Below, in pieces: positions 3,060-35,625 of a stretch of 41,051 nt of DNA. Position 1 is the stretch's first letter. Each line of letters begins with the position of its first letter. This DNA comes from Candidatus Bathyarchaeota archaeon RBG_16_48_13 (GTDB taxonomy: Archaea > Thermoproteota > Bathyarchaeia > RBG-16-48-13), in the NCBI GenBank assembly GCA_001775995.1, contig MEZH01000016.1, positions 10,263-51,313 on the forward strand, read 5' to 3'. Both the position numbers and the translations under genes were made by a program. The notes below the pieces were generated by a model. That model saw only the letters and a list, made by a program, of their open reading frames with translations, ran no database searches and was not told the DNA's origin.

Positions 3060-3230
3060 CCGAGACGGATCAAATTCAGCCGCATGACCAGTGCTCTGCG
3101 ATCTTATGAGCCCACACAAGAATCCAATTCAGTTAGGCAAGAACGAAATCGGGCAGTTTTGGCTAGCGCGCGCCATTCTTCCGCAAGAACTATTAGCCCA
3201 TTCCACCTGTGTTCTTTGTGGCGACAACCT

Positions 3231-3596
3231 GTGAAAACATTGAAGAAACGCTTTGAAACAATAGACGAATATATCGCTACATTCCCCCGAAGCGTCCAAG
3301 ATATTTTAGAAGAACTGCGACAAACAATCCAAGATTCAGCGCCGGATGCCAAAGAGACAATCAGTTACCAAATGCCCGCTTTCAAATTGAATGGCAATTT
3401 GGTGTATTTCGCGGCGTTCAAGAATCATATTGGATTTTATCCCACTTCATCTGCCATTAGTGAATTCAAAAAAGAACTGTCTCATTATGAAGTAGCAAAA
3501 GGCACCGCCAGATTTCCCATAGACGGGCCGATCCCTTTTGACCTGATAAGGAAGATTGTGAAGTACAGAGTAAAACAGAATTTAGAAAAAAGGTGA
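3231..3596 (+). CDS. DUF1801 / YdhG-like protein
   Basis: TIDEYIA..., ETISYQMPAF, VYFAAFKNHIGFYP, KGTARFP motifs; the listed upstream extension looks non-coding, so GTG 3231 is used. Confidence 0.85.
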   Translation: MKTLKKRFETIDEYIATFPRSVQDILEELRQTIQDSAPDAKETISYQMPAFKLNGNLVYFAAFKNHIGFYPTSSAISEFKKELSHYEVAKGTARFPIDGPIPFDLIRKIVKYRVKQNLEKR

Positions 3597-3734
3597 CAGC
3601 GGAGCGCGAGCTACAGACGTCTAAAGCTGCTGCAGCAACACCCCGATATCCTTGTTTGAATATTCTACCTCAACAATGCCTGGTGACAGCGAATCGAACT
3701 AAATCTTGATCCAAAGGCCTAGGGATCTGTTGAA

Positions 3735-4460
3735 CTATGCGATTTGCCATTTCTCTTTGAGTTTTCCCGCAGGACAATACTTGAGGCAGGGGGCGGGACA
3801 AAGCTTGTACGGTGTGCCAGGGATGGGTTCGCCGAGTTCCATTTCCGCTCGCCAACACGTCTCGACATTGTTCCGGCCTTCGTTGATGGCTTTCGCGATG
3901 CAGACCTTTTCGCAGACCATGCATTTGCCGCAGGGATCCCTTTCCAAGGGCTTGTCAGGGGTGAGCGGCGCGTTGGTGATTATGGCCGCCAAGCGGACGC
4001 GGGGTCCATACTGCGGAGTGATGAGTAGGCTGCTCTTGCCCACGGCTCCGAGGCCCGCCAATTGAGCGGCATGTTTCAGGGAGATCGATCCCCGCATGTA
4101 TTCCCAGTCCGTGGACAGGCTTTTCGAGGTCTTGGATGACTCGGGAGTCTTGTAAACAGGAGAAATCGCCGTGACGCCTTTGAAACCGTTCTCCGCGAGA
4201 ATTCCTATGATCTGGGTGCCGACTCTGGCCAGCTCATCCTCTCTGGCTTTTTTGACGATCCGCCTCTCCTCCGGGGAAGCCTCCTCGATCACTTTGTCAG
4301 GCATCTGAATTGCCATTACTATGACGCTCTTGGCGTCTGGAAGCACATCTCTGGGCCTGCGGCCCTCGGTGACGTTCCATCCTTTGGCGGACGCTATGCC
4401 GACGAGGCTTATCCCTTCAAACATCGCCAGGGCTTTGATCACTGAAGTCAGATCATGCAC
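3735..4460 (-). CDS. Epoxyqueuosine reductase (QueG)-like cobalamin / 4Fe-4S protein
   Basis: SLKHAAQLAGLGAVGKSSLLITPQYGPRVRLAAIIT, then CGKCMVCEKVC and a second Cys cluster; substrate not assignable. Confidence 0.75.
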   Translation of the reverse strand: MHDLTSVIKALAMFEGISLVGIASAKGWNVTEGRRPRDVLPDAKSVIVMAIQMPDKVIEEASPEERRIVKKAREDELARVGTQIIGILAENGFKGVTAISPVYKTPESSKTSKSLSTDWEYMRGSISLKHAAQLAGLGAVGKSSLLITPQYGPRVRLAAIITNAPLTPDKPLERDPCGKCMVCEKVCIAKAINEGRNNVETCWRAEMELGEPIPGTPYKLCPAPCLKYCPAGKLKEKWQIA

Positions 4461-4700
4461 GATGAATCAATAAATCAGTGTTCACGCTGTTCTTTAATTC
4501 TTTTTGTATGCTTGTTTTCAGAGGATCAGTAACCTGAGGCACAGGCAGCGTCTTCAAAGCATCTGCTACTGACTTGCCAACCCGTACGTCCTTTCATTGT
4601 AACAATTAGCAAATGCATCATGAGTCCTCTTCTCAACCCTTTTATAATTCCTCGATAGAATTGCCCCCGATTAACACAAGAGACTTTGAGGTTTCAAAAA

Positions 4701-5042
4701 ATGCTGTTCCTGAACATATTGAAGGCATATATGCCTTTGCCGATACCTCTGGCCCAATTTGCCGAGCTGGCGGTCAAGCACCGGGACTACCTGAGGAGGC
4801 TCGAGAAAGAGGGAAAGATAAAGTTCACCGCCGCCTTCCTGGGGAAGCGGGCTAGGGTGATAATCTTCGACGTCGAGTCCGACGAGGAGCTCTTCGAGTG
4901 CATAAACGCGGACCCGCTATTCAACTACATGGAGCGGGAGACCCACGCGCTCATCTCGAACGAGAAGGTCTACTCCATATACGAAGGGATCGAGAAAGCC
5001 TCGTCCAAGAAAACACCTGCGAAGAAATTCAAGCGAGAATGA
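4701..5042 (+). CDS. Muconolactone isomerase / YciI-like small alpha-beta barrel protein
   Basis: YLRRLEKEGKI...IIFDVESDEELFECINADPL pattern; GAGG SD before ATG 4701. Confidence 0.6.
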   Translation: MLFLNILKAYMPLPIPLAQFAELAVKHRDYLRRLEKEGKIKFTAAFLGKRARVIIFDVESDEELFECINADPLFNYMERETHALISNEKVYSIYEGIEKASSKKTPAKKFKRE

Positions 5043-5165
5043 ATTGAGAGCGAGTACCCAAAAGGCTCCTGCTGCAGGGAATGCAGGCAGTTTAGAGCGC
5101 ACACATCGCATGACTTAAAAGGCGTCAGCAACCAAAAGATACCTATTGGTTGGGATCGAAGAATC

Positions 5166-5732
5166 ATGCGCCCATATCCGGTCATCCTGTGTTTTGTGCT
5201 GGTCTTCTCATCTCTGGCAGGCCTTGCGTTGCCCCCCGTGAGGGCCGCGGACTGGCAGCAAGTGACCCGCTTCACCGGGTCGGGAACCCAGCAATTGAAC
5301 ACCACAGAGTTCAGCATAGCCGGGTCCGAGTGGCGCATAGTGTGGAGCTACACTCCCAATAGCATCGAGCCGAGCCTTACGATATTCAGCTTCTTCATCG
5401 TCAGGCACGGAGAAGGGGCTCCCTTCGGCGAATACGTATACGAGTCTGGGACCGACACGACGAGCGGCGTCCTCTACATCCATGAGGGACCCAGACCCTA
5501 TTACCTGATGATCTTGGCGGCCAACACCGCGGGGTACACGATCACTGTGGAGTCTGACAGGAGTACCGAGGTCGGGACGGGGATGCTCACCCTGATAATC
5601 GCGTTGGTCATCGCGATCCCGGTGGCTCTCATAATCGTCATGGTGTACATCCTGAGGAAGAGAAAGCGCACACAGAAGGCACCGACCTTTGCGGAATATC
5701 CGCAGCCTCCCCCTCCGCCTCCCCCCGCTTAG
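5166..5732 (+). CDS. Secreted protein with C-terminal membrane anchor and poly-proline tail
   Basis: Signal peptide ending PVRA, beta-rich ectodomain, TM LTLIIALVIAIPVALIIVMVYIL, RKRKR stop-transfer, QPPPPPPPA end. Confidence 0.7.
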   Translation: MRPYPVILCFVLVFSSLAGLALPPVRAADWQQVTRFTGSGTQQLNTTEFSIAGSEWRIVWSYTPNSIEPSLTIFSFFIVRHGEGAPFGEYVYESGTDTTSGVLYIHEGPRPYYLMILAANTAGYTITVESDRSTEVGTGMLTLIIALVIAIPVALIIVMVYILRKRKRTQKAPTFAEYPQPPPPPPPA

Positions 5733-5842
5733 TCTCGCGCGAATGCTGTAGGAACAAAGCGCCATTCAATGGTATTAGTGTCATCAGATGTCAGCATATG
5801 AGTGCGCGCGCTATGTCAGTGGAAACATTGGTCGCGAGAATA

Positions 5843-7171
5843 TTAATCTAGCAATCGTATTCTCAGGCTCCTTCTTCGGGATGAAGGATCTGATTTTAGA
5901 GTCTCCGTTGCGGAAAGAGAAACTTCACGATCGCTGTCTACATGTATCACAAACTCGATCTGAGGCACACCTCGAGGTGACGGCGTTATCCCTGTGAATT
6001 GCACCCTCCCCAGAGACACATTTTTCTCTATCTTCTGGTTCTCTCCAAATGCTATGTGGAGGTTCATTTCAGTTTGATTGTCAGCCAAGGTTGAAAAGAT
6101 TCCTCGATGCTCTAATGGCAATGAGCTTCCCATCTTGATAAGAGGGGTGAAGACCCCTCCCAATGTCTCGACCCCGATGGAACCGCGATCTAAGTTGATC
6201 CTTCCGAGCCTCAAGCTTTCTTCAGTTGGCTTTGCAGGAAGATTAGTCTCAACATACGCCTTGTTGTGCAGGGTTTCTGCGTGTTGCGGGTTGATTTCCA
6301 GAGCCTTATCAAAGCACCTTAACGCTTCATCAATATGGCCCAAACCCGCCAGAACAATTCCTTTACTACTCCAGGCATCCGTGTACTGAGGGCTCATTCG
6401 CAGTGCTTTGTCGAAGCATTCTAAGGCCTCACTCAAACGATTGATACTATTGAGACTGTTCCCTTTTGCGTTCCAAGTCTCTGTGTCTTGTGGGTTGATC
6501 TTCAGAGCTTTGTCGAGGCATTTTATTGCTTCATCGAAGCGTCTCAACTCATGGAGCATAGTTCCTTTCTTATACCATGCCTCTCTAAGTTGCGGATTTG
6601 TTGCCAGAGCATTATCATAACAGTTCATTGCTTCATCAAGACGACCCATCTTACGGAGGTCGTTTGCCTTGTTGTACCAAGCCTTTGCGTCTTGTGGGTT
6701 GATTCTCAAGGCCATATCGCAGCATTCTATCGCTTCATCAAGACGGCCCAAATAGTAGCAGCTCGCTCCCTTGGCATTCCATGCACTTGCATCTTGTGGG
6801 TTGATTTCCAGAGCTTTGTCGAAGTATCTTATTGCTTCATCAAAACGATCGAGACTATTGAGCGCAGCTCCCTTCCCGTACCAAGCTTCTTCGTAACGAG
6901 GGCTAATTGCCAGAGCGCTCTCGTAACGTATTGCCGCTTCATCAAAACGACCATATTCGTAGTGAATCGATCCCTTGTACCACAAAACTTCTGCGTCTCG
7001 CGGGTTGATTTCCAGAACCTTATCGAAGCATTTCAAAGCCTCATCAAAACGTCCAGAATCCGCAAGGTCCTTTCCCTTTTTCTTCCACTTTTTCGTTTCA
7101 TTATCTGGCAATTCGTCTGGTTTTGGAGTGTCAGTTGCCTCTTTTTCTTTCTTCCGTTTGAAGATGTTCAT
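5843..7171 (-). CDS. TPR-repeat protein (8 full repeats) fused to a DnaK/Hsp70 substrate-binding beta-domain
   Basis: 34-aa repeats (AWY.KG..L..LGRFDEA..CFDKAL.INPQD); C-terminal SIGVETLGGVFTPLI...FSTLADNQT...SLGR...GITPSPRGVPQIE matches the DnaK SBD-beta consensus. Confidence 0.85.
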   Translation of the reverse strand: MNIFKRKKEKEATDTPKPDELPDNETKKWKKKGKDLADSGRFDEALKCFDKVLEINPRDAEVLWYKGSIHYEYGRFDEAAIRYESALAISPRYEEAWYGKGAALNSLDRFDEAIRYFDKALEINPQDASAWNAKGASCYYLGRLDEAIECCDMALRINPQDAKAWYNKANDLRKMGRLDEAMNCYDNALATNPQLREAWYKKGTMLHELRRFDEAIKCLDKALKINPQDTETWNAKGNSLNSINRLSEALECFDKALRMSPQYTDAWSSKGIVLAGLGHIDEALRCFDKALEINPQHAETLHNKAYVETNLPAKPTEESLRLGRINLDRGSIGVETLGGVFTPLIKMGSSLPLEHRGIFSTLADNQTEMNLHIAFGENQKIEKNVSLGRVQFTGITPSPRGVPQIEFVIHVDSDREVSLSATETLKSDPSSRRRSLRIRLLD

Positions 7172-7469
7172 ATATCAGTCACCTTGTAGTTCAAACAACG
7201 CTTCTTCGTTGAAGGCTTACGTGTTTTTTGCGAGCGCTCATACCAAATCAAGGTGTCAAGATTCCAATTCCAGCTTAGAAAATGATTGTGAATAATGAAC
7301 CCGCCTAAGAAGGGAATAGAAAGCCCAAACATCAAGGCCTTGATTCTGTCAGAAAAAGTATGGGTCAATCAAGACACTGATTGTATTATGGAATCGATAG
7401 ATTCTTAATACTTCTGTCTGTTGCTTGTTTCCGAGCGCGCTTACAGCAGGTGAGGTCCAGGGGTGTGAA

Positions 7470-7910
7470 TTACTTGCCTCTGCCGCTGCATCTCTTGCAA
7501 ATGCCGTGAATGTCGAGGCGCTGCCCTGTCCGCGTGAACTCCTTCTTGGCAGCAAATTTCGCAACCATTTCCCTAGCGGCAGGATCTTCCATGTCCTCTA
7601 TGCTCCCGCATCGGAGGCAGACCAAGTTTATGTGGGGCTCCATGCAGGAATCGAACCTCGCCTGGCTTCCGGGGAAATCCAGCTCCTGGACCAACCCGTG
7701 TTCAGTCAATATCTGAAGCGTCTTGTATACTGTCGCGAGGCTGACGGTGGGATGGACCTTCCTCACTTCATCGTAGACCCTCTGCGCGGTCGGATGGTCT
7801 CGACTCTGGAGCGCGTACCGGCACACCGCTATCCTCTGGGGAGTGGCCCTGTACCCCTTCTTGCGGAGGCTCTCGATAATCAGCGCGTCTGACTTGAGGA
7901 AGCTGCTCAT
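7470..7910 (-). CDS. Fur-family (PerR-like) regulator
   Basis: TPQRIAV, HPTAQRVY, SLATVYKTL, two CxxC motifs (CLRC, CKRC); divergent from catalase. Confidence 0.9.
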   Translation of the reverse strand: MSSFLKSDALIIESLRKKGYRATPQRIAVCRYALQSRDHPTAQRVYDEVRKVHPTVSLATVYKTLQILTEHGLVQELDFPGSQARFDSCMEPHINLVCLRCGSIEDMEDPAAREMVAKFAAKKEFTRTGQRLDIHGICKRCSGRGK

Positions 7911-7914
7911 AGCT

Positions 7915-7933
7915 CTTATTAGATAATAATAAG
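7915..7933. promoter_or_regulatory. Inverted repeat CTTATTA-N5-TAATAAG; candidate Fur/PerR operator
   Basis: Perfect 7-bp arms in the 93-nt gap between the regulator and catalase; AT-rich like Fur/Per boxes. Confidence 0.5.
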
Positions 7934-8003
7934 TCTTAAATAACCTTTGAGCCAGTCAAATGCTTGGAATACTCAATAATGTGAAGAGGGAGGTTCCTCA
8001 AAA

Positions 8004-9452
8004 TTGAAGAAAAGATTCCTTACAACGAACCAGGGCGTTCCCGTCTCCGACAACCAGAGCTCGCTCACAGTCGGCGACCGCGGACCCGTCCTGCTGCAGG
8101 ACGTCCATCTGATCGAGAAGCTCGCGCACTTCGACCGCGAGCGCATACCCGAGCGCGTCGTCCACGCGAAGGGCGCCGGTGCGCACGGCTACTTCCAGGT
8201 GTACAAGAGCATGGAGAAGTACACCTGCGCGAATTTCCTCCAAGACCCGAAGAAGAAGACGCCGGTCTTCGTCCGCTTCTCGACGGTCGTCGGCGCACGA
8301 GGATCAGCGGATTCGGCGCGTGATCCCAGGGGCTTCGCGGTGAAGTTCTACACCGAGGAAGGAAACTACGACCTGGTGGGCAACAATCTGCCGGTCTTCT
8401 TCATCCGAGACGCGATAAAGTTCCCCGACATGGTGCACGCCTTCAAGCCCGCCCCAGACACAGGATACCCCACGAGCTCTTCGGCGAACAGCCGCTTCTG
8501 GGACTTTATCTCCCTCCACCCGGAATCGACCCACATGATCACCTGGCTCTTCTCGGACAGGGGTACGGTGAAGAGCTACAGGAAGATGGAGGGGTTCGGC
8601 GTCAATACCTACAAATGGGTGAACTCCAAGGGCAAGGAGGTCTACGTCAAGTACCACTGGAAGCCTAAAGAGGGGATAGAGACAATCGACCGCCATGAAT
8701 CCACCCGCCTCGCTGGCGAGGACCCTGACATCGCGACCCGCGACCTGCGAGAGACGATTGCCTCCGGCAAGACCGTAGAATACGAGTTGCGCGTCCAGAT
8801 CATGGAGACGGCCGACGAGCTGAAACTGGATTTCGATCCACTCGATGCGACGAAGACCTGGCCCGAGGACAAGTATCCGCTGATGCCGGTGGGAAAGATG
8901 GTGCTCGACCGCAACCCCGAGAACTTCTTCGCAGAAACGGAGCAAGCCGCCTTCAGCCCGGGCTCCATCGTCCCGGGAGTCGACTTCTCCACCGACAAGC
9001 TCCTCCAAGGAAGAGTCTTCTCCTACGCGGACACGCAGAGGCATCGACTCGGCGCCAACTACCTGCAACTGCCGGTCAATCGGCCAAAGGCGCAGGTGGA
9101 CAACAACCAGCGCGACGGCGCCATGCAGTACGCGCCCTACGGCGGAGGAACGGTCAATTACGAGCCCAACACCCTGGCGGGCGGGATGCCACAGGAAGCA
9201 TCGGCCATCGCCGTGAGCACGCCGAACATCGAGGGCAGAATCATCCGCAAGAAGATCGGTCTGACGAACAACTTTGAGCAGGCAGGCAAACGCTACTGCT
9301 CACTTAACAAGACGGATCAGGACCACCTGGTCGGGAACATCGCGGACTCGCTGGGCCACGCGGACAAGCCGATCCAGCAGCGCATGGTCGAGAATCTGAC
9401 CAAAGCCGACAATGAGCTAGGCAAGAGAGTAGCAAAAGAACTTAAGCTCTAA
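8004..9452 (+). CDS. katA: Monofunctional heme catalase (small subunit)
   Basis: FDRERIPERVVHAKG (distal His), RDPRGFAVKFYT, DLVGNN, RVFSYADTQRHRLG (proximal Tyr). Confidence 0.97.
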   Translation: MKKRFLTTNQGVPVSDNQSSLTVGDRGPVLLQDVHLIEKLAHFDRERIPERVVHAKGAGAHGYFQVYKSMEKYTCANFLQDPKKKTPVFVRFSTVVGARGSADSARDPRGFAVKFYTEEGNYDLVGNNLPVFFIRDAIKFPDMVHAFKPAPDTGYPTSSSANSRFWDFISLHPESTHMITWLFSDRGTVKSYRKMEGFGVNTYKWVNSKGKEVYVKYHWKPKEGIETIDRHESTRLAGEDPDIATRDLRETIASGKTVEYELRVQIMETADELKLDFDPLDATKTWPEDKYPLMPVGKMVLDRNPENFFAETEQAAFSPGSIVPGVDFSTDKLLQGRVFSYADTQRHRLGANYLQLPVNRPKAQVDNNQRDGAMQYAPYGGGTVNYEPNTLAGGMPQEASAIAVSTPNIEGRIIRKKIGLTNNFEQAGKRYCSLNKTDQDHLVGNIADSLGHADKPIQQRMVENLTKADNELGKRVAKELKL

Positions 9453-9483
9453 AACGCGCCAATCACGGCGCGCTTTTTCTTTC
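9451..9483 (+). terminator. Hairpin CGCGCC/GGCGCG followed by a T-tract
   Basis: 6-bp GC stem (9455-9460 / 9467-9472), 6-nt loop, then TTTTTCTTT, directly after the katA stop. Confidence 0.5.
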
Positions 9484-9690
9484 AAGGTTCAGCGTCAGCG
9501 CGCGCTTGAAGCAGAGGAAAAATTTCAAATAGCTGCTTTCTTCCTAATTTTTGAGAACTCACGATCTCTCGAAAAGCGCATGCCTAACGGTTCGTAGCGA
9601 AGAGTAGGCCCAACGCTCGCTTACACTGGGATTGGGTAGCCCTTGGGGCACGTAGAGCAAGAATGCTTCGTCGGAGAAGAGGGGAGCCCT

Positions 9691-10260
9691 ATGTTTAGAA
9701 ATCGAGAAGGAATACGCCAACGAGTTCAGGAGATTGTAGAGAGATTTCGCCAAAAAGGAGCCACAAGTCCAGAAAAGGCCATGACGACCCAAGAGCTAGG
9801 GTTGCCGCCGCGTTTTGAAGATGCCATGCATCGAAGACTCGGTCAATCAGGCATCTTCGTTGAGGTGAACGGCAAATACTACTTGAATGAAGAACGACTC
9901 AAACGGGTCCAAGAGCAACGCGCCAAGGCGGGGTCTAGAATCGACGGAAGCATCGGAGCGGGTCAACCCACCTGGTTCCGGATTGCCGGGATTCTGCTCA
10001 TGCTGCCGATCGGCGTCATCGTCGCCCTTGCCCTGTTCTTCATTCTCGGCTCAAGAATAGGGTCCTTTCCTGGGGAATTCCTCATTATCGTGACGGCCAT
10101 CTTGCTGGCGTTGACCGTGGCCAGGCTGTTATTCTGGAGGTCTAGAAGGAGATATTGGCGGGGGCGCGGCGGTTCTGGTGGATTGTTCTCCAGCGCGCGG
10201 ACGCTTCAAGAATGGCTCAATGCGAGCCAAGACTTCAGGATCTCAGTGTGGCCGGATTAG
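9691..10260 (+). CDS. Hypothetical membrane protein: N-terminal winged-helix-like region and two TM helices
   Basis: GATSPEKAMTTQELGL...FVEVNGKYYL, then two hydrophobic segments; ATG 9691 preferred. Confidence 0.6.
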   Translation: MFRNREGIRQRVQEIVERFRQKGATSPEKAMTTQELGLPPRFEDAMHRRLGQSGIFVEVNGKYYLNEERLKRVQEQRAKAGSRIDGSIGAGQPTWFRIAGILLMLPIGVIVALALFFILGSRIGSFPGEFLIIVTAILLALTVARLLFWRSRRRYWRGRGGSGGLFSSARTLQEWLNASQDFRISVWPD

Positions 10261-11249
10261 ACGGCTTCGCACATCGCTATGAACATGGCCTTCACCTGCT
10301 TGAACGTCGCACCGCTGTTCAGGCTGGTTTTCTTTGAGCTTGAGCTGTCCCACCCACTCATGACTTCCGTCATGAATCCCGCCGCGCCTTTGCTCGCCGC
10401 ACCGCCGTACGAATTTCCTGACCCGCAACCGCTGCCGACCGAGAACGTCCATTTACTTGTTACACCCAGCGCTGATTGTATTCCGGAGAGAAGGCTCTTC
10501 ACTTTGTTTGCGTCCGTCTTCGCTTGACTGGTCGTGGCGCTACACCATGTTTGCGGAGATGCTCCCTGATGCAGGTTCCAGTATATCCGGGGGTGGTACT
10601 TGTTCCAAGCGTTTATGAGAGCTTGAGCCTCCTTTTCGCTGTTCGCGGAGGTCCCGGAGTATGAGTCGGTGTTCGAATGGCTCAGCGAACTGGGCCAATT
10701 CGGACCGAAGTTCCTGTTGAGGTTGACGCCGCATTTCCCTCCGTCTTTGGCCGGGTCTTTCGCAGTCATCCAGGAGGGCACGTTGTAGTTGGTTCTCCCC
10801 CACCTGTAGTCAACGATTGGGACGATCAGGACGTAGTTGTTTTGGAGGATTTGTTTTGCGTAGGTATCGCCGCTTGTGAGGAGCCATTTGACCAGTGAGT
10901 AGAGGACTTCTTCTCCGTAGAACTCGTTGCCGTGAAGGTAGCTGTCCACCATCACCGGGGCGCCGTTGGGGTTGCCGAACTTGAAGAGGATTATGTCCCA
11001 GCCGTATGTGCCGCTGCTCTTGCCTATGCTCTCATAGGTTCCGCGGTACTGATTGGCCAAGGACATGAACGCTGGGATCACCGCTTCTTTCTTGGTCCAT
11101 GGCAGATAGCTCGAAGGTACTCCCCCGTAGGAGATCTTGCCGGTTGCCGGATATGACAGAGCCACGGCTTGCACGGGCTGCACTTGGATGCCGAATGACG
11201 CCACTGCGATGATGACCAGCAGTATGGCCAATACCTTAAGCATTCTCAT
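10257..11249 (-). CDS. Secreted M14-family zinc carboxypeptidase
   Basis: Signal peptide; HGNE (HxxE), NLNRNF, NLHQG and TEV motifs in M14 order. Confidence 0.82.
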   Translation of the reverse strand: MRMLKVLAILLVIIAVASFGIQVQPVQAVALSYPATGKISYGGVPSSYLPWTKKEAVIPAFMSLANQYRGTYESIGKSSGTYGWDIILFKFGNPNGAPVMVDSYLHGNEFYGEEVLYSLVKWLLTSGDTYAKQILQNNYVLIVPIVDYRWGRTNYNVPSWMTAKDPAKDGGKCGVNLNRNFGPNWPSSLSHSNTDSYSGTSANSEKEAQALINAWNKYHPRIYWNLHQGASPQTWCSATTSQAKTDANKVKSLLSGIQSALGVTSKWTFSVGSGCGSGNSYGGAASKGAAGFMTEVMSGWDSSSSKKTSLNSGATFKQVKAMFIAMCEAV

Positions 11250-11260
11250 TGCTTGTTACC

Positions 11261-12937
11261 TCAGACCGTGGGCCCGCTGGACAGGCTGTCGCCGTAGACC
11301 GTGAGCCCAGCCTGCACGTTTGTCGCTGATAATATGCCGAAGTCCACGTGGGTCGCAGCGGCGCCGCCCGAGTTCACAGTTAGCTGAAGCACCTTCGTCC
11401 CGTCGACGTACATCTCAGCAAGTCTCTGCCCGGCGTCGTAGCGTATCTCTACGCTGTGCCAGCTGTTGGCAGACACTACTTTGGAGGAAGTCACGTATGA
11501 CCCTGCGGCGTAGAGCTCCCACCTGTTGGTGCTTCCCGTTCGCCTTATCCCGGCCGTTGCGAGGGATTTTGTTCCGTCAGAGAGGCGGATCAGGTAGAAC
11601 CTGTCACCCTCGTCTCTGAGCCAGCTGGAAGTGGAGCTGACGATGCGGACGTATCCCTTTGCGAAGGCCTTCTGCAGAGGGTCCACATTTTCGTACAAGT
11701 AGGCGTTCTCGGTCCCGCTTGAGGTTCCAGAAGTCGTGAATCGAGCGCTGTAAGCGCCCTGGTATGGCGTGTATTTCCCGATAGTTACGGTCTCGCCCGA
11801 AGTCTTGCTTGACCCGCTCCAGGCGCCGGCATCTCCAGATTCAAAGTTGTCTTCAAACGCATCGTCCGAAGGCGTAGGGGCAGGCGTAGGCGAGGGCGTA
11901 GGGTTGGGTGTTGTGCTCGACGACTCAGGGTATTTCGTGAGCTCGTAGTACGCGGGCTTCGGGGCGGTTCCGCTGTAGATGTTGAAGGCCATGCTGCTCG
12001 CTTCTCTGGCCTGCCACATCCAGGCGTAGGTTATGGTAATGATCCCGGCGCTTAGGAATTTCTGGAGGCTGAGCTTGTAAAACTGCGTGACGAAGGCGCT
12101 GTCCTTGCTGTCGCTGCCGTACTCGATGACCCACAGGGGGACGCCGGCCGCTTTGACCTGCGACACGAGGGTGTTCCAGTCGCTCCAGGTGACGTGGTAT
12201 CTCGTGCTGCTCGGGTCGGCGGGGTCGAGATATTCCGTGACCGCGAATGCGTCAAACATCTTGTACACGGACTGATCGTATTTGCCAGTCGCTGGGGTGT
12301 AGGACAGGGTGAAGCGGCAGGCTACCATGTGCTTCGGGTCCACCGATTTCACCGCGGTGTAACTATTCTGGAAGAGGGTCTGGAATTGGCTTTTGTCTTG
12401 GCTTGTCCAAGGATACTTCCAGGGCTCGTTCATCACGGCCCAATTATCCACGGCAGGGTAGTCTTTGAGCTGTGCGACCACGGCTTTCAGGTACCGGAGA
12501 TAGTATCCCTGGACGGTAGAACTGGACACGATGTCATAGTAGTCGTTCACCCACGTCGGTAAGCCGAGGTCGTAGGTGAACTGCGTCCAGAAGGTGATCC
12601 CCACCTTTATGCCGTACTTGTCCGCTATCTGGAGGACGCGCTTGTAATTGTTCATGGCCGTGGTCGACAGACGAGCGCTGCTGCTGGAGAATGTGGGCTC
12701 CGTCACGGACCAGAGTATCCGCACGTTTATGTGTTTGATTCCGTCTTTTGCGAACCGCGAGAAATCCGCTGTCAGAGTCGAGTTGGGTTCGCCCCAAGCG
12801 TTTCCTGAAGACAGGTAGTTGATGCCCGCGACCAGCGTAGCCTGTGCCTGCGCCGGCCTCACTTGAACGCCGAAGGATGCCAGTGAAATAAGGAGCAGGG
12901 TCACCAGCAGCGTCAAAGGCGCTTTGTGCTTCATCAT
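11261..12937 (-). CDS. Secreted clan GH-A (GH5/GH42-like) glycoside hydrolase with PT linker and C-terminal beta-sandwich domain
   Basis: Signal peptide; VMNEP acid/base and VIEYG nucleophile motifs; TPNPTPSPTPAPTP linker; ConA/lectin-like C-terminus (FEDNFESG...WHSVEI...MYVDG). Confidence 0.8.
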   Translation of the reverse strand: MMKHKAPLTLLVTLLLISLASFGVQVRPAQAQATLVAGINYLSSGNAWGEPNSTLTADFSRFAKDGIKHINVRILWSVTEPTFSSSSARLSTTAMNNYKRVLQIADKYGIKVGITFWTQFTYDLGLPTWVNDYYDIVSSSTVQGYYLRYLKAVVAQLKDYPAVDNWAVMNEPWKYPWTSQDKSQFQTLFQNSYTAVKSVDPKHMVACRFTLSYTPATGKYDQSVYKMFDAFAVTEYLDPADPSSTRYHVTWSDWNTLVSQVKAAGVPLWVIEYGSDSKDSAFVTQFYKLSLQKFLSAGIITITYAWMWQAREASSMAFNIYSGTAPKPAYYELTKYPESSSTTPNPTPSPTPAPTPSDDAFEDNFESGDAGAWSGSSKTSGETVTIGKYTPYQGAYSARFTTSGTSSGTENAYLYENVDPLQKAFAKGYVRIVSSTSSWLRDEGDRFYLIRLSDGTKSLATAGIRRTGSTNRWELYAAGSYVTSSKVVSANSWHSVEIRYDAGQRLAEMYVDGTKVLQLTVNSGGAAATHVDFGILSATNVQAGLTVYGDSLSSGPTV

Positions 12938-13061
12938 TTGTAGTGTTCCTCCGTTGAGTCAACCCCGTGTTCCGCTTTGCTGCCCCAAGCGCGACATGAG
13001 TTGCCCTCGGAATCTTTGGCGCATGGTTTTTAGCCTTTTTTGAGAAGATCCATTGAGATGA

Positions 13062-13083
13062 TTAGTCAAGTGCACTTGACTAA
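13062..13083. repeat. Perfect 22-bp palindrome TTAGTCAAGTGCACTTGACTAA
   Basis: Exact self-complement, read directly; flanked by an outer inverted repeat TTTTTAGCC (13027-13035) / GGCTAAAAA (13093-13101). Confidence 0.9.
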
Positions 13084-26812: not shown

Positions 26813-27130
26813 TCACAGCGGTTTTCCGCATTTGATGCAGTTGGCTCCGACAGGAGGTTGAACTGTGTGGCAATTCCTGCACTCTACGACGAGATGGGCG
26901 CCGCAGTTCTGGCAGTAGTCATCGAAGAAGGTGAGCTTTCCGCATTTGGGACAACTGATCGACAAGGAGAGGCCGCAACTGCTGCACCTAGCCCAGCCGA
27001 CCTGGATCGGCGCACGGCATTTGGGACATCTGGTCTCCAGGGGGTTCACCTTCCCGCACGCGGGGCATACCTTCGAATTTGGGGGGACGAGCTGGCCGCA
27101 GTACTTGCACGGTTTCTGATAGCTCGACAT
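26813..27130 (-). CDS. Small protein made of four tandem zinc ribbons
   Basis: Eight CxxC motifs in 105 aa. Confidence 0.85.
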   Translation of the reverse strand: MSSYQKPCKYCGQLVPPNSKVCPACGKVNPLETRCPKCRAPIQVGWARCSSCGLSLSISCPKCGKLTFFDDYCQNCGAHLVVECRNCHTVQPPVGANCIKCGKPL

Positions 27131-27253
27131 GGGCGTTCACTTTTGAAGGATTCTTGGATACGCTTCCGTAATATGCTTTTTCGTGGCATCGAGCCGAACA
27201 TAACCTTCTTATAACCCAGGTTTCAATCGCTAAGAATATGGAGTTGTATTGAG

Positions 27254-27913
27254 ATGCCTTTCATACCTTTCACGAGAAATTACGCCGACAATAGCACCGA
27301 GGCAGGGTTCCAGTTCACCTTCTTCTGCGACATATGCAACGATGGCTACAAGACCGGCTTCATCGAGTCGAAGACCTACAAGAAGGCCGGGCTTTTCAGG
27401 GGGTTGGGCAGGGCCGCCTCGATAGGCTCATCCATGTTGGGCCGCGGAGCTGGATACCAGGTCGAGCGGGGCACCGACGTGATCGCCGAGAGGTTCTCTG
27501 GAATGTCGCCAGAGTGGCACAAGGAGTACGAGGAAGCGTTCAAGCTTGCCCAGAACGAGGCCATGGGACACTTCCACAAGTGCCCGAAGTGCGCCAAGTG
27601 GGTGGACGACACGTGCTGGAACGACGAGGACGGGCTGTGCACCAATGATGCGCCGAGAGCCGCGGCGGAGATCGCTGCAGCGAGGGCCACCCAGAGGAAA
27701 GACCAGATATGGAAGAAGGCTGCGGAGACGACCGTCTTCACCGGCGAAGTCAAGGCCACTCAGACCATCTGTCCGCGGTGCGGGAAGCCCGCTGGATCGG
27801 GCAAGTTCTGCACGAATTGCGGAGCCCCACTCATGATGTTGACGTGCTCAAAGTGCGGAGCACAGAACAATCCGGGCACAAGTTTCTGCAGCGAGTGCGG
27901 AAACAAGCTCTAG
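27254..27913 (+). CDS. Zinc-binding protein with C-terminal double zinc ribbon
   Basis: FQFTFFCDIC, CPKC...C...C, then CPRC/CTNC and CSKC/CSEC. Confidence 0.85.
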   Translation: MPFIPFTRNYADNSTEAGFQFTFFCDICNDGYKTGFIESKTYKKAGLFRGLGRAASIGSSMLGRGAGYQVERGTDVIAERFSGMSPEWHKEYEEAFKLAQNEAMGHFHKCPKCAKWVDDTCWNDEDGLCTNDAPRAAAEIAAARATQRKDQIWKKAAETTVFTGEVKATQTICPRCGKPAGSGKFCTNCGAPLMMLTCSKCGAQNNPGTSFCSECGNKL

Positions 27914-27972
27914 TCCACCCAGGGATCAGAAAAACCCTTCGAAAGAAAGCTGATGCCAGAAAGAGATAGGAA

Positions 27973-29307
27973 ATGGGAAGCGCCGAGGAAGAAGAGAAGA
28001 GTACGATCGATTGCCCCATGAGCTACGCTCTCATCGACGAAAAAGGAGGACAAGTGGCCGCAGGTGAGGGAAAGGGGGCGATCACGAGAGAGTATCTAAC
28101 AATCTCCCCGAAGTTCGGCAACATCCTGCCATTTCACCTGAGGGACATAGACGAGATCATAGTAGAAGGCTATCGAATCAACCTGCCGCTGTTCTCGAGT
28201 GAGAAGCTCATTCTCTCCAATCTGGGCCATTGTTTCGAGGACTTTGCGAGGACCCTTTCATACCTTAGAAACGAGGTGATAATATCGGATCTCCTCATGA
28301 ATGAGACCATCCGAAACCCCGACGTCGAAATGGAGTTCGCTTACCTCGACGAGAAGGGAAATGAAGTTCAGAGGGGCGCCGGAAAGGTTCGCCTCTACGA
28401 GACCGGGTTGCTCGTCATACCCCAAAGGGGCGAGATCCTGCGAGTGCCCTACGGCGATGTCGTTGGCGTCTCGGAGGAGGGCCATGGCGTGAAGATAGGC
28501 ACCGAGTTCGGAGAACAATTCCTCTTTCAGAAGATGGGCGCGGAGTTCGACCCGTTTCTCAGGAAGTTCTCGGATGTCCAGAATGAGCTAAGAGCCAAGG
28601 AGGTTTCCTCGGTCAAGGCGCTCTTCCCTGCGATCGACTCAGTCTCGCTAAGAAGGGTCGCAGCGATCGTGAGGGAAGGAAAGGCTGCCAAGCGAGCGGA
28701 AATTGAAGCCATCAGCCCGAGGCTTTGGCAGGAGCTGGAGAAGAGGATAGCCTCGGCCGGGCTCAACGAATCGTACACATTCCTGAAAGAACTCGGTCGC
28801 CAGGAGAGGATAGCCATAGGATTCAAGCGCGGCCTCATAGGGGACCTGACGGGCGAATACATCTGGTTCCTCGTGCCAATCTACGGTGATAGCGAGAAGG
28901 GCTACGGGAACGCCCTCTGCATGGAGGCGGCCGAGGCGACCGGCGAGGAGGCCTCCGGGAAGGCCACCTACTTCTTCAGGATGGGTAGCAGAAAAGAATA
29001 TTCAGTCCATGAAAACGCTGAGCAGCTCGACATCGGGGCGGACAATCTCATCAAAACGGTGAGCCGGTGCATGCTCGACATCAACTTCCGAAGGGAACCC
29101 ATTTACCTGCAGGATGAGGTGCTGAACGAGCCCGACTACGTCAAGTACAGAGTAGCGGTGCGGAGGATCCCTTCTCTTGGGCTCCTCAGGGAGCTCTTCA
29201 TAGGAAGAGTCATACATTCCTCGCCCGAGCAGTGGAGGAATGATGTAATGGATCTACTCAAGTTCAACATGGCAACGCGAGACGACTCTGTTAAGTGGAG
29301 AAGATAA
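27973..29307 (+). CDS. Hypothetical protein with tandem PH-like beta domains and a helical C-terminus
   Basis: Internal duplication (YALIDEKGGQVAAGEGK versus FAYLDEKGNEVQRGAGK), each followed by a short beta-strand pattern. Confidence 0.7.
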   Translation: MGSAEEEEKSTIDCPMSYALIDEKGGQVAAGEGKGAITREYLTISPKFGNILPFHLRDIDEIIVEGYRINLPLFSSEKLILSNLGHCFEDFARTLSYLRNEVIISDLLMNETIRNPDVEMEFAYLDEKGNEVQRGAGKVRLYETGLLVIPQRGEILRVPYGDVVGVSEEGHGVKIGTEFGEQFLFQKMGAEFDPFLRKFSDVQNELRAKEVSSVKALFPAIDSVSLRRVAAIVREGKAAKRAEIEAISPRLWQELEKRIASAGLNESYTFLKELGRQERIAIGFKRGLIGDLTGEYIWFLVPIYGDSEKGYGNALCMEAAEATGEEASGKATYFFRMGSRKEYSVHENAEQLDIGADNLIKTVSRCMLDINFRREPIYLQDEVLNEPDYVKYRVAVRRIPSLGLLRELFIGRVIHSSPEQWRNDVMDLLKFNMATRDDSVKWRR

Positions 29308-29485
29308 GAACGGTAGCAGGACCATCCTCGTGACCTGATGAGCTGAGAGTTTCCAGGAATCTTCTTCGAATGCTCCAACCAAACTCTCTTCCTGTACATG
29401 TGAAATGTTCCTTCGCACTGCTAAACAATTAGTAGCACAGCCGATAGGCTAGGGACGGCAAAAATAGGGGAAAATGGTTCTTAAC

Positions 29486-29965
29486 TCATCCATGGACTTC
29501 TCGCTTTCTCTCATTCATTCTGTCCACGAGATACTCCCAAAACTTGAACATTTCTGCATCGCCAGACTCCTTGCGCATCTCTGATATCAGGGGTTTGAGA
29601 TCATTCCATGTTGATGGAATGATGCCGCCCCAGAAATCCTGTACAATATCCGGTTCGACCAATTTTCTGTAAACGAGAATCCCTATGCCTTCAAAATAGT
29701 TGCCGAGCATTTTGAGTGAAGTATTTTCGGGTTTCCCAGAGTACCTTTCAAGGTAGTCGCTGTAACTTGAGTACTCGATGGAGCAGACCTGAGTAATTGC
29801 CTCCTGCACCTCTCGGGCGTTCAAGTTGAACCATGGAGACAGCCTGATCAGGCTCTCCGTTTGTCTGATTCTGCCCTGATGCCGAATCTCTAGGATATAG
29901 TAGATTACGCCGGCTAGCACACCCGCAGAAGCAATCGCGATAGAAGCAGTCTGTATGTCGACCAT
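29486..29965 (-). CDS. DUF4760-like protein with N-terminal TM
   Basis: TM IAIASAGVLAGVIYYIL; LGNYFEGIGILV...W..LKP.I...FWEYL. Confidence 0.75.
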   Translation of the reverse strand: MVDIQTASIAIASAGVLAGVIYYILEIRHQGRIRQTESLIRLSPWFNLNAREVQEAITQVCSIEYSSYSDYLERYSGKPENTSLKMLGNYFEGIGILVYRKLVEPDIVQDFWGGIIPSTWNDLKPLISEMRKESGDAEMFKFWEYLVDRMNERKREVHG

Positions 29966-30158
29966 CGTTCCCACCCTAGAGGAAATCTTGGTTCGAGCAA
30001 TCTATAACTTTTCTGCGAACGTGAAATCGGGGCGCGCAGGGGAACCAAAACCCATCAATTTGCCCAAACCTCTACCCCCGTCTGTCTTCTTGGGCAAATG
30101 TTATCTCATGTTTGGGCTCTATTCAAGAGCAACGGACAAGATGTGAGGAGGGATTGAT

Positions 30159-30566
30159 TTGCATTGGATCGATCAGTGGATTGGAGTCGGAGACCTCATT
30201 GACGCTAACTACGTCGCAGAGCTTAGAGAGCAGGACGTTGACTTCATCGTGGACGCAAGAACCCTGTTCGAAAGTGCGCACGTTGGATTTCATCACGAAA
30301 ATCGCCCTGTCCCAAGCAAGATACTCAAAGCCGCGAGGCTTCTTGTTGCCCTATCGGATCTCGACGCGAAGATATTGATACACTGCCTCGAGGGCATCGA
30401 TAGAACGCCATTTCTGGCAATGGTATATGTGAGCAGGAAATATAAGATGAACTACGAAGCTGCCTACAAGTTCGTAGCGGAGAAGAGACCGAGCACTCGC
30501 TACCATTGGGATTGGGTGAAGCTGCTGGAGTCCAACGAAAGTGTAGGTGCTGCGTCGCAAGAGTAG
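30159..30566 (+). CDS. Dual-specificity phosphatase-like protein
   Basis: HCLEGIDRT, an intact CX5R(T) P-loop. Confidence 0.85.
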   Translation: MHWIDQWIGVGDLIDANYVAELREQDVDFIVDARTLFESAHVGFHHENRPVPSKILKAARLLVALSDLDAKILIHCLEGIDRTPFLAMVYVSRKYKMNYEAAYKFVAEKRPSTRYHWDWVKLLESNESVGAASQE

Positions 30567-30805
30567 TCCCTTGGTGTGTTTGGGGAATAATGATTCAGTA
30601 TACTTTGTGTTAATGTGAATTGAGGAAAAACCTTGAGGTGTCCTGGAAAAATCTTTTTAGCATTGGTCGGAGCGCGCACTCTGTTTATGGATTACTGGGT
30701 GGCCTCTTTTTCGGTTCGGCTGAACCAGGCGCGCGCTGGGCAAAGCTTTGGCGATGATGCAGCAAGATGGCAGCAGTGGTGGAATGAACAAACCTGAGAT
30801 CAAGT

Positions 30806-31266: not shown

Positions 31267-31473
31267 AAGTACTCAGTAATGGGGTGACATCCTAATCCGT
31301 TTTGCTTACGCTAGCTAGCCAACGTGAACCGCGCGCGCCGAAATGCATTTTATTCTTCCCTTCTACTGGACTTCTTGTCTAGTCCCTTTTTTCCTTTTTC
31401 GCAACATGCCCTACACTACTCTACACGCAGAAGGATTATAACGGGTGCGAGAGATATTACTTGGGATACTAAA

Positions 31474-31860: not shown

Positions 31861-32341
31861 ACATCGTATGACAATCAGCGCGCACTTGCCTATAGATAGG
31901 GTATTCAATGCTTTCACGTTGACTCGTTTTTGTCTGTTCTTATTCCGCGCGCGCTGACGAAGTCGCCGTCGTCGCTCCAGTCATCAGAGATGCCGTCCAC
32001 GGGGTTGGGCAAAGCATTCGGCGTGTTGAATATGGGGTGCGACGTATAGCGCGCGCTATGTCATTCCATGGTTGTCAAGGGCTAGGATCGGGTAACGTTG
32101 GGTGGGATCGCTGATGTCTATATCGCTCGAGAAGACCAGGATTTGCGGCTCCTGAGCCGTGATAACACGAACCGTTCCCAAGAGAGAGCATCAACAGAAC
32201 TGCCAGAACAGCTACAGTTGTTTTCCTCATATGAATCAAACCCATTTCTCATTTTCTCAGCGATTACCTTGAGAAATCTTATGCCATGTCCGACGCAACA
32301 AAGCTTAAATGAAATGATTCCCCAGTCGGTTTGAAAGAAAA

Positions 32342-33283: not shown

Positions 33284-33450
33284 GAGCTCCAGGTCGTGTT
33301 GAACGGACTTGTCAGGAGGAGCTTCAGGAGAACAAGAACGGAAATAGCGTACTGTGTTGCGATCAAAGGGTCACGGGAGTGCATAATAATCCGAATAACC
33401 AAATACCCGAATCCGATTGAACAAGACCTATAAACGGATTTTTCCAGGAG

Positions 33451-33918
33451 ATGCTTTCGATGGTGCCGAGAATAAGCGTGAGAAGGGCGGAGACCCGAGA
33501 TTTAAGCAGAATCGCTGATTTCAACATGAGAATGGCGGAGGAAACCGAACGGAAAAAACTTAACGCCGAGGACGCACTCAAAGGCGTCGAGGCCGTATTG
33601 AATGATCCCGGCAAGGGGTTCTACCTCGTGGCAGAAAAAGGGAACAGCCGGGAAATAGTCGGTCAACTGTTGGTGACCTTTGAATGGAGCGACTGGAGGA
33701 ACAAGAACGTCTGGTGGATGCAAAGCGTCTTCGTTGAGCCCGAAGCCAGGAACCAAGGAGTCTTCACCCAACTCTACAGGAAACTCGGGGATTTGGCGGA
33801 CTCTGAGGGACGGGTCTGCGGTTTTCGACTCTACGTTAAAAAGAGCAATGTTGCAGCTAAGAGAGTCTATGAATCGATCGGGTTCAGGATGACTTTGTAT
33901 GAGATATACGAGAAGTAA
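33451..33918 (+). CDS. GNAT acetyltransferase
   Basis: EWSDWRN..WMQSVFVEPEARNQGVF; N..AKRVYESIGF. Confidence 0.9.
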   Translation: MLSMVPRISVRRAETRDLSRIADFNMRMAEETERKKLNAEDALKGVEAVLNDPGKGFYLVAEKGNSREIVGQLLVTFEWSDWRNKNVWWMQSVFVEPEARNQGVFTQLYRKLGDLADSEGRVCGFRLYVKKSNVAAKRVYESIGFRMTLYEIYEK

Positions 33919-33942
33919 CACCGCTTTCTGGGCGTAGCGTTC

Positions 33943-34233
33943 TCACAGCCTAGCTTTCATCTTCTTGTAAAGATCGGCACCCTTGGATGATTCCCATATT
34001 GGGAACACTTGGATCTTGGCTATTCGGCCGTACTCAGTCACGAAATGCATTATATCCTCTATGTTATCGGTCTCAAAGATTGTGAATCCTTTGTATCCTC
34101 TTGGCGCATCGGCGATCGTGTGAGGCGGGATCAGAGTCTTAACGACGTGCCTTGCTGACACTCTCTTGTCCCAGATGGCGATGAATCCATCGAGGTCGTC
34201 TTCCGCACACTCAATAAAAGCTATAAATCTCAC
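33943..34233 (-). CDS. DUF3303-like small ferredoxin-fold protein
   Basis: KGFTIFETDN.EDI....YG....QVFPI pattern. Confidence 0.6.
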   Translation of the reverse strand: MRFIAFIECAEDDLDGFIAIWDKRVSARHVVKTLIPPHTIADAPRGYKGFTIFETDNIEDIMHFVTEYGRIAKIQVFPIWESSKGADLYKKMKARL

Positions 34234-34471
34234 TTGGAAACTCCTCCCTGTTGCCTCTTTATGCAGAATCGCAGATATTAGTCTTCACCGTCCGATCTGG
34301 GCGCGACAAAGAAATGGCAGTGACATAATTCCAAGAGGAGATAGGGCAACATACTGTTCATGGCTTCGGAGAGAAAGGAGTGGACGGCTCCAAACCCCGA
34401 GAAAGAACTTAATCCAAACCAAAAACCTTTTCATGCCTCAGGTTTGAAATCACCTTCTGTGGTTTAGTCCG

Positions 34472-35296
34472 ATGAACATTTCAGAGAAGTTGAAGATTGA
34501 CCCGCTGAATTATGCCGCTGGTCTTGAATCACCCATCGGGATCTACATCAGAAGGGAAATCTTCAAACATGAACCCAAGAGCGATGCGGCCCTGAAGAAA
34601 AGACTGTATGACCAAACAGTTGCAGACCAATCTATAGATGGGAGTTGGAGCCAACTATTTGTTCGAACAGCCAACAATCTGTGGAACCTGGCTCTACTTG
34701 GCTGTGAAGCAGAGGAGAAAAGCGTCAAGAAGGCATTAGGATGGCTTCTGTCGATTCAAAAAAGCGAATATCGAGGCCATCCGGGCTTCTTTAGTTCACC
34801 CAACAGAAAAGACCCGAGTCTGATGCGTTCAACAACCTATGGAGAATTCGGACCGGGCTGTTCGATTTTCTATCAAACAACCTATGCAGTGCATTTATTC
34901 CACATTTTCGGTCTTCACAACAACGAGAATGTCCAAACGACCGTAAGATCATATTTGGATTTTTGGAATCCAAGATGGTGTGGAGCATGGTGTACGATCA
35001 ACGTGTTACGTATATTGATAGAGCATCCGCTGAGTGCAGAATCCAAACAAGTCAACAGCGGGCTAGAGCATCTCGCAGGACTGCAAACCAAAACAGGAAC
35101 ATGGAGGGGCTTCCCATTCTACCATACACTCCACGCCCTGTCTAGAACCAGACATACCGTGGCAAAGAAACAACTTGAAAGAGCTTTCCCAATAGTCATC
35201 AGGAGACAAAACAAGGACGGAAGCTGGGGGAGAAAGGAACGCGAGACCGAAACTTTTCTTGTACTAGACTCTCTGAAAAATGCCGGCGTCATGTAA
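34472..35296 (+). CDS. Prenyltransferase / squalene-cyclase-repeat (alpha/alpha toroid) protein
   Basis: QW-type repeats QSIDGSW, QTKTGTW, QNKDGSW. Confidence 0.7.
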   Translation: MNISEKLKIDPLNYAAGLESPIGIYIRREIFKHEPKSDAALKKRLYDQTVADQSIDGSWSQLFVRTANNLWNLALLGCEAEEKSVKKALGWLLSIQKSEYRGHPGFFSSPNRKDPSLMRSTTYGEFGPGCSIFYQTTYAVHLFHIFGLHNNENVQTTVRSYLDFWNPRWCGAWCTINVLRILIEHPLSAESKQVNSGLEHLAGLQTKTGTWRGFPFYHTLHALSRTRHTVAKKQLERAFPIVIRRQNKDGSWGRKERETETFLVLDSLKNAGVM

Positions 35297-35625
35297 GCGC
35301 GCTCGTCTCAACATAACTCGAACGCGCATATTGCCCCCAACGCGCGCATGCTTGGAATAGACGTAGGCAGAACCATCGCCTCATTGATCAGAATGAATTT
35401 TCACTCTATGCTGTGCGTCCATAAGCGTCTTATTAGCTGTCTAAGTACCTCTCAAAAGACTGATGTGCCCAAATATCTGAGATGAGTCTCACGAAGACTG
35501 GACGGAGAATCGACTCTGGGCCGGGCGGTGCATCTTCCCGTCTTGACTGACATGCGGAATGTTTTGCGTAGTAATTGGGAGAAAGTGAGGGAATTCGATA
35601 AGAATAATTCCGTGGCTGTGATCTG

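Follow-up and report, generated by a model that had tools for sequence, protein, structure and literature searches.

Alternating GC runs between the genes of a Bathyarchaeia genome as probable scars of rejoined DNA

The genome of Candidatus Bathyarchaeota archaeon RBG_16_48_13 contains a 41,051-nucleotide stretch (contig MEZH01000016.1, positions 10,263 to 51,313; hereafter, the window) in which short runs of alternating G and C, GCGCGC or slightly longer, recur mostly between genes and often just past stop codons. An earlier note on this DNA had regarded these runs as a genome-wide cis-element marking gene boundaries and had listed several candidate roles, ranging from a termination or RNA-processing signal to a recombination scar joining gene modules. 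The question raised by this locus is what such runs are and why they lie where genes end. We found that, in relatives of the source genome, a filler of fixed sequence is newly present at deletion junctions and at breakpoints of homology. The runs of the window itself are in our judgment probably joint scars of the same kind, left where broken DNA was rejoined, and not gene-control signals.

Abundance and placement of the runs

GCGCGC occurs 36 times in the window when overlapping copies are counted, and these collapse into 26 alternating-GC loci of 6-9 nt, against an expectation of 8.96 +/- 2.85 occurrences in dinucleotide-preserving shuffles (maximum 19 among 100 shuffles). Four loci are 9 nt long (starting at 15169, 20290, 31330, and 31946), six are 8 nt (3166, 5804, 9498, 20915, 30729, and 32049), six are 7 nt, and ten are 6 nt, which reproduces both the total and the ten loci of 8-9 nt counted in the earlier note. 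The gene map on which they were placed was curated from Pfam scans, the gene calls of a second assembly, and inspection of doubtful open reading frames (ORFs). On this map, 20 loci fall in intergenic gaps, two in parts of doubtful ORFs (30729 and 31330), three in non-conserved C-terminal tails (10193, 13281, and 23298), and one in an SPFH domain (17340), the same split as the 22 intergenic loci, three tails, and one conserved domain described before. A strict coding mask leaves 25 of the 26 runs outside conserved coding sequence. Under that mask, 35 hexamers fall in the 9.9 kb of non-coding DNA, where its own dinucleotide content predicts 2.17, and the 31.2 kb of coding sequence is depleted, with a single hexamer against 7.3 expected; the enrichment claimed for the non-coding part thus persists once dinucleotide composition is modelled. 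The runs cluster near stop codons, many of them 0-45 nt downstream, and their closest approach to any start is 35 nt, with two divergent gaps also containing runs. Clustering of the runs with one another in the non-coding DNA of the window was not significant (7 close pairs versus 4.9 expected, P = 0.18). Four sites previously pointed out as variants of the run (5735, 23124, 78-89, and 19681) do have the sequence ascribed to them.

The window lies on contig C16 of a metagenome-assembled genome (MAG) of 848 kb in 16 contigs, 75% complete and with an estimated contamination of 0.66%. In the non-coding DNA of this MAG, GCGCGC exceeds its dinucleotide expectation 5.5-fold and GCGCGCGC exceeds it 37-fold, while GCGCGC in coding DNA stands at 0.6 times expectation; none of the other GC-only hexamer palindromes in the MAG is enriched likewise. 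An A at position -1 (and a T at +1) accompanies 63% of the non-coding copies versus 27% of the coding copies, and because A/T flanks predominate at the non-coding copies, the consensus can be written as (T)A-(GC)3-4-T(A). Density differs about 15-fold from contig to contig, with 11.3 run loci per 10 kb on C3, 5.3 on C16, ~2.5 on C12 and C13, and 0.6-0.9 on three large contigs, which also have runs bearing A/T shoulders, including a hot bin on C7. The densest patch of the MAG is found at C3 10990-11340 (L083), where five GC runs occur within 330 nt between short pieces, one of which resembles a protein fragment on the reverse strand. The positional bias reported for the window proved to be partly local: the bias to stops stands within the window, but it is weaker elsewhere in the MAG, where runs in tandem gaps (n=16) show no skew to stops, their mean relative position being 0.47, and where convergent gaps alone stand out, with about twice the run density of other gaps. 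Among 151 genomes of the class, a few contain the 10-mer AGCGCGCGCT in 131, 119, 106, 94, and 65 copies and most contain 0-3, while the source MAG has 10 copies and none of the reversed control word. The runs are thus restricted to some Bathyarchaeia lineages.

The run-rich window belongs to accessory DNA. Its two halves have DNA matches in 18/41 and 8/41 relatives (counts that include the source genome), whereas a run-poor core stretch of 20 kb on C7 has matches in 41/41. Unrelated modules of one to three genes make up the window like a mosaic, and their homologs are dispersed over different contigs of the relatives. Run positions are not conserved at orthologous sites among the window and the relatives compared. 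In the spacer between the zinc-ribbon gene and the gene for a 444-amino acid (aa) protein, for example, a CGCGCGC patch is present only in two related metagenomic loci (L039 and L041), while the sequence at this place is unrelated in the window and in four other relatives; the patch takes the place of ~15 nt of spacer and is not added to it, although such cases are too few to generalise. Relatives in GTDB are 66-75% identical to the window, and the source genome stands alone in its family. The sole other assembly of its population, identified through exact-protein look-ups, is the more fragmented GCA_035256105.1, which matches window 1-13998 and 26913-30109 (L025 and L026) at 99.75-99.96% identity with mismatches only and no indels.

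Runs at deletion junctions and homology breakpoints

A direct comparison comes from L039 and L041, which were found by a metagenome scan with the 444-aa protein of the window, are 98% identical to each other, and share ~70% aa identity with the window's 444-aa gene. A stretch of 1159 nt in L041 is replaced in L039 by GCGCGCG, so that one ORF is missing its 3' three-quarters and a second ORF most of its length, and the edges of that stretch in L041 are run-free on both sides. L041 represents the ancestral state, because its 157-aa ORF matches a gene of the closed relative G011 end to end, while the match of L039 stops at the run. Elsewhere in the same pair, one orthologous run is polymorphic, (GC)3 versus (GC)4. 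A second deletion junction was evident in the relative G014, in which locus L004 is the ortholog of the window operon 16556-19314 with its middle gene lacking ~125 codons. The junction there reads ...cataA-GCGCGCGC-Tggtg... and is followed by the last ~45 codons of the middle gene, which is intact and run-free in the window and in L005, L006, and L007.

A statistical counterpart is provided by G011, a closed genome of 1.98 Mb and 39.6% G+C from the same order as the source genome. G011 contains 735 runs of up to 15 nt, 648 of them non-coding (10.4 per 10 kb in non-coding versus 0.66 in coding DNA), and A occupies the -1 flank at 70% of its sites. Of 1038 end points of intragenomic repeats, 39 are no more than 5 nt away from a run edge, compared with 7.0 +/- 2.8 expected from circular shifts (maximum 15 among 200), a 5.6-fold excess. 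The density of end points is also sharply peaked, at 6.5 per nt within 0-5 nt of a run versus ~1.2 per nt at 6-50 nt. The run is confined to one copy in 33 of the 38 junction pairs, the other copy going on run-free into unrelated DNA; three fragments have runs at both ends. Together with L039/L041 and L004, these breakpoints support the recombination scar joining gene modules, which had been one candidate among several in the earlier note. It should be noted that only ~67% of G011 DNA was assigned to confident genes and that 30.6 kb of the sequence is N; abundant gene fragments, or else a weak gene caller, may explain this low coding density.

The placement of the runs in G011 also bears upon their proximity to gene ends. 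Run density is 1.58 per kb in divergent gaps, 1.57 in tandem gaps, and 2.49 in convergent gaps, and the 10th percentile of run distance is 11 nt to a stop and 44 nt to a start. Runs are thus rare within ~40 nt upstream of starts, a spacing that purifying selection on core promoters would leave behind and that does not match a terminator. The closeness of window runs to stops fits the same explanation, since selection that spares promoters would leave runs free to touch stops.

Fainter traces of joining are visible within the source genome as well. The catalase/hyp189 spacer of the window contains, upstream of the gene for a 189-aa membrane protein, a plus-strand remnant (9574-9681) that corresponds to the final ~35 codons of a gene paralogous to the dual-specificity phosphatase gene (30159-30566), with ~70% DNA identity, and the same spacer holds two runs, GCGCGC at 9468-9473 and GCGCGCGC at 9498-9505, 15 and 45 nt past the catalase stop. 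Searches with proteins of the source genome, of G011, and of the relatives' loci recovered no other gene remnants in the non-coding DNA of the window. The 189-aa protein itself (9691-10260) loses homology at RRRYW, after which its tail reads through the GCGCGCG run at 10193-10199, 11 codons downstream. Its G014 homolog (L031, G014:C91, 141-612) has a run two codons past RRRYW and a different new tail, while a run-poor relative ends at RRRYW.

Individual runs of the window

The remaining runs, all of them strandless features, occupy a variety of contexts, and for those closest to stops the distances agree with the ones given in the earlier note, as does the 15 nt of the catalase run at 9468. 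At the extreme, GCGCGC at 35297-35302 directly abuts (0 nt) the conserved stop of a prenyltransferase-like gene, and CGCGCGC follows at 35341-35347, 44 nt past that stop. Truncation by run 35297 was considered and ruled out, as the prenyltransferase-like gene has its full length; in the G014 homolog, a run is located upstream of the start instead. GCGCGCGC at 20915-20922 lies in a convergent gap 5 nt past the stop of a PRC-barrel gene, GCGCGC at 16542-16547 lies 8 nt past the stop of an SPFH-zinc-ribbon gene and borders a conserved three-gene module, and CGCGCGC at 14636-14642 lies 10 nt past the DUF952 stop and 50 nt before the GYD start. A coiled-coil gene ends 17 nt before GCGCGC at 31878-31883, the first of three runs in a 481-nt spacer that also holds CGCGCGCGC at 31946-31954 and a full copy of the consensus, ATA-GCGCGCGC-TAT, at 32049-32056. 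Four runs lie 29-34 nt past stops, namely GCGCGC at 7435-7440 (FUR, 29 nt), GCGCGCGCG at 15169-15177 (ParB-like gene, 30 nt), GCGCGCGC at 5804-5811 (convergent gap, TPR gene, 31 nt), and GCGCGCGCG at 20290-20298 (pyrophosphatase, 34 nt).

Other runs are farther from stops or unrelated to them. GCGCGCGC at 3166-3173 sits in the PadR/DUF1801 tandem gap, 106 nt past the stop and 57 nt before the start, and two GCGCGC runs follow stops at similar distances, at 23231-23236 (EamA, 107 nt) and 30672-30677 (phosphatase gene, 105 nt). The divergent gaps hold GCGCGCG at 21395-21401, with starts at 191 and 94 nt, and GCGCGC at 30032-30037, with starts at 57 and 121 nt. GCGCGC at 16430-16435 is 35 nt upstream of a cupin gene start, and CGCGCGCGC at 31330-31338 precedes the likely start of the coiled-coil gene by ~140 nt. 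Within reading frames, GCGCGCG at 13281-13287 encodes part of the C-terminal tail of an ArsR-RDD gene (residues 250-252 of 280, beyond the RDD domain), GCGCGCG at 23298-23304 is close to the 3' end of a doubtful 136-aa ORF, and GCGCGCGC at 30729-30736 is inside the read-through tail of a small zinc-ribbon ORF. GCGCGC at 17340-17345, within the conserved SPFH domain, is probably a chance coding occurrence. Separately, a perfect 24-nt palindrome (GATGGGTGCCTG/CAGGCACCCATC) is found at 23987-24010, ~63 nt upstream of a glutamine amidotransferase gene (24073); it could be an operator or a hairpin and has no relation to the GC runs.

Competing explanations, mechanism, and meaning

Alternatively, the runs could have been present before the breaks, as fragile or recombinogenic sites that suffer microhomology deletions, or as landing sites or ends of small mobile DNA. 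Such hot spots also predict the location of runs at breakpoints, and both copies are run-bearing in 5 of the 38 G011 junction pairs, just as three fragments are flanked by runs on both sides; the slippage of run length by one GC unit and the TA shoulders, which are reminiscent of target-site duplications, point in the same direction. We nevertheless regard pre-existing hot spots as unlikely, given that the undeleted L041 is run-free at both edges, that intact orthologs of the deleted gene are run-free, that in most G011 pairs a run is missing from the matching place of the partner copy, and that the run flanks contain no repeated element family beyond ordinary paralogs. A different concern is that the uneven distribution is an artefact, produced by binning contigs of two Bathyarchaeia populations together, a run-rich one (C3, C13, and C16) and a run-poor one. 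The run-rich contigs do have a slightly higher G+C content, a CpG observed/expected ratio of 0.93-0.95 versus 0.78-0.83, and a position at one edge of the second component (PC2) in a principal component analysis of tetranucleotides, and some window genes are 74-78% identical to relatives from a run-rich family, above typical core genes. However, the main axis of that analysis puts them within the spread of the large contigs, the estimated contamination is below 1%, and runs with A/T shoulders are found on the large contigs too, which leaves mis-binning with very little credence; even if real, it would alter only which genome owns the runs and not their nature.

Transcription terminators or RNA-processing sites at gene 3' ends would account for the many window runs just past stops, for the 1.6-2.4-fold greater density of runs in convergent gaps than in other gaps, and for the T tract that follows run 9468. 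Yet divergent gaps, which contain promoters only, are as dense as tandem gaps in G011, window runs also sit in divergent gaps and ORF tails, and an adjacent T tract is missing at most window runs (judged by inspection of the flanks, not by a formal count). A palindrome of 6-9 nt cannot form a stable hairpin, the 200-nt contexts of runs in the source genome are unstructured (mean z -0.19, best -2.5), run positions are not conserved at orthologous gene ends, and most genomes of the class have almost none. The termination or RNA-processing signal suggested earlier is therefore not borne out, and such a role seems highly improbable. The remaining group of explanations holds that the runs are selected binding or modification sites, such as those of a nucleoid protein or a BssHII-type methylase, a Z-DNA supercoil sink, an uptake-like signal, or an analogue of the cyanobacterial word HIP1. 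Restriction and methylation systems are known that recognise GCGCGC, and alternating GC tends to adopt the Z-DNA form, both of which would suit this proposal, as would the strong, lineage-specific over-representation of a single palindromic word. On the other hand, coding DNA is depleted of runs and their sites are not conserved, unlike HIP1-like words, which abound in coding sequence and keep their positions between orthologs (PMC5861425). Their density tracks accessory DNA with the 15-fold variation between contigs, and the replacement of deleted DNA by runs would be left unexplained, which makes selected sites very unlikely. A uniform genome-wide cis-element, as originally envisaged, is likewise not supported, in view of the spread in density, the lack of conservation at orthologous sites, and the unstructured contexts.

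Several observations weigh against joint scars, or at least restrict that interpretation. No run-less allele of any of the window's 26 sites was found in the collections searched, and the scar reading is therefore transferred to the window from its relatives; it is by this route that we infer the same origin for its 26 runs. The duplicated segments of the source genome form only 35 pairs, too few for statistics, and the duplication breakpoints are separated from the nearest runs by 8 nt (for a segment on C13), 51 nt, and 89 nt, with none exactly at a run. Even in G011, the repeat end points other than the 39 do not touch a run. Not every indel is run-bearing, since no GC run accompanies a 5.4-kb insertion in L041 relative to L039 (L041:2568-7976); direct repeats of 14 nt (TTCTGGAAC[T/A]CAAC) flank this insertion, which is probably a mobile element that integrated there. 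The strong proximity to stops in the window, which is less marked elsewhere in the genome, might mask a secondary function. Finally, neither an enzyme nor a template for the scars was identified in the gene-family and RNA searches described below.

A fixed-sequence scar of this kind was not found described in the open literature searched, but several known systems share some of its features. Filler DNA and N-nucleotides of non-homologous end joining (NHEJ) and alternative end joining resemble the runs in being extra nucleotides that occur in neither parental flank and lie exactly at junctions; at the relatives' sites, the junction nucleotides are indeed missing from the undeleted allele in L039 versus L041, in L004 versus the window and L005-L007, and in the 33 G011 pairs. 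Known end-joining fillers are random or copied from nearby sequence, whereas the Bathyarchaeia filler is always the same self-complementary (GC)n word with A/T shoulders, at hundreds of places per genome. The addition of a fixed short repeat to DNA ends is familiar from telomerase acting at breaks and from bacterial DRT10 (bioRxiv 10.1101/2025.10.16.682844), and because the sequence of the runs is fixed, a template can be argued for. Unlike the products of those systems, however, the runs form an internal joint and not a chromosome end or free cDNA, and no template RNA was found, nor was an RVT_1 (PF00078) reverse transcriptase in five run-rich genomes; templated addition of a telomerase- or DRT10-like type without a reverse transcriptase is possible as an analogy. 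HIP1 and the alternate highly iterated palindromes of cyanobacteria (PMC5861425, PMC4390886) are also single short GC-rich palindromes with a huge lineage-specific over-representation, but HIP1 is frequent in coding DNA, conserved, and tied to a methyltransferase, while the runs are excluded from coding DNA, not conserved, and located at breakpoints. The GC clusters of yeast mitochondria (PMC4478555) are GC-rich palindromic inserts in AT-richer spacers that vary between strains and have TA-type shoulders; these clusters, though, are tens of bases long, folded, and inserted as mobile elements, in contrast to runs of 6-15 nt that replace lost DNA. REP/BIME elements and integron attC sites (PMC12306157, PMC2817692) are extragenic palindromes between genes or cassettes, often right after stops, but they are imperfect hairpins of 20-140 nt with a dedicated transposase or integrase, whereas the window runs are 6-9 nt with no fold found. 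No integrase-type family turned up among the 30 window proteins scanned against Pfam.

If the runs are joint scars, they would be de novo patches with the consensus (T)A-(GC)3-5-T(A), placed at deletions, gene truncations, and pasted fragments by a process that would operate in some Bathyarchaeia lineages only. In the proposed scheme, an identical self-complementary tail, roughly (T)A(GC)n, would be added to each broken 3' end; pairs of tails would anneal in variable register, making any two ends mutually sticky, and the joint would then be sealed. The palindrome, the variable run length, and the A/T shoulders would all follow from the annealing of self-complementary tails in variable register. 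The scars, for which no function of their own is shown, would be tolerated in spacers, just past stops, and in dispensable C-terminal tails and purged from conserved coding sequence and core promoters. Being kept where harmless, they would seem to mark gene boundaries and would pile up in fast-changing accessory DNA. More tentatively, a dedicated archaeal DNA-rejoining system may write the fixed (T)A(GC)n tail from a protein or RNA template and drive gene-by-gene turnover of accessory DNA, a proposal that we consider possible but doubtful.

Searches for the enzyme or template covered several candidates. PF09250 is absent from the source genome and was found in 7/151 genomes, only one of them run-rich (G082, 30 copies); it is absent from G011, G014, G016, G022, G094, and G100. 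A compact 262-aa AEP primase is present in 27/151 genomes irrespective of their run load, and G011, G014, G016, and G022 lack it. The source genome does have this primase paralog, on C7 at 45950-46735 (L028:1306-2094, minus strand); its nearest homologs (<=69% identity) are in other families of the class, and the 22 other genomes of its own order yielded none, a pattern suggestive of transfer or loss. There was no AEP-linked pattern of runs at the two PF01896 genes of the source genome, at 29 PriS loci of relatives, or at six more paralog loci, a few of these loci containing only isolated GCGCGC hexamers. A regular-expression scan for AEP motifs gave one match, a transglutaminase-like ORF rejected as a false positive. 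On the RNA side, no Rfam match was found in the window, and no run-bearing non-coding element is conserved between G011 and the source genome, as far as the latter's 75%-complete MAG goes. Genes with a nearby run in both the source genome and G011 encode ordinary enzymes (SDR, radical SAM, amidohydrolase, luciferase-like, ETF, and PaaK-like ligase). The enzyme may belong to a family invisible to Pfam or be missing from the incomplete MAG. Because the distribution of the runs is patchy, with >100 perfect 10-mers in some genomes and 0-3 in most, the enzyme should be findable by phylogenetic profiling.

For those who annotate such genomes, the runs flag gene truncations, pseudogene remnants, and module borders, and they caution against annotation as terminators or regulatory sites. 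If they are indeed written scars, the runs record where and how often the genome of an uncultured archaeon was cut and rejoined, and they would indicate an end-joining chemistry with a palindromic filler of fixed sequence.

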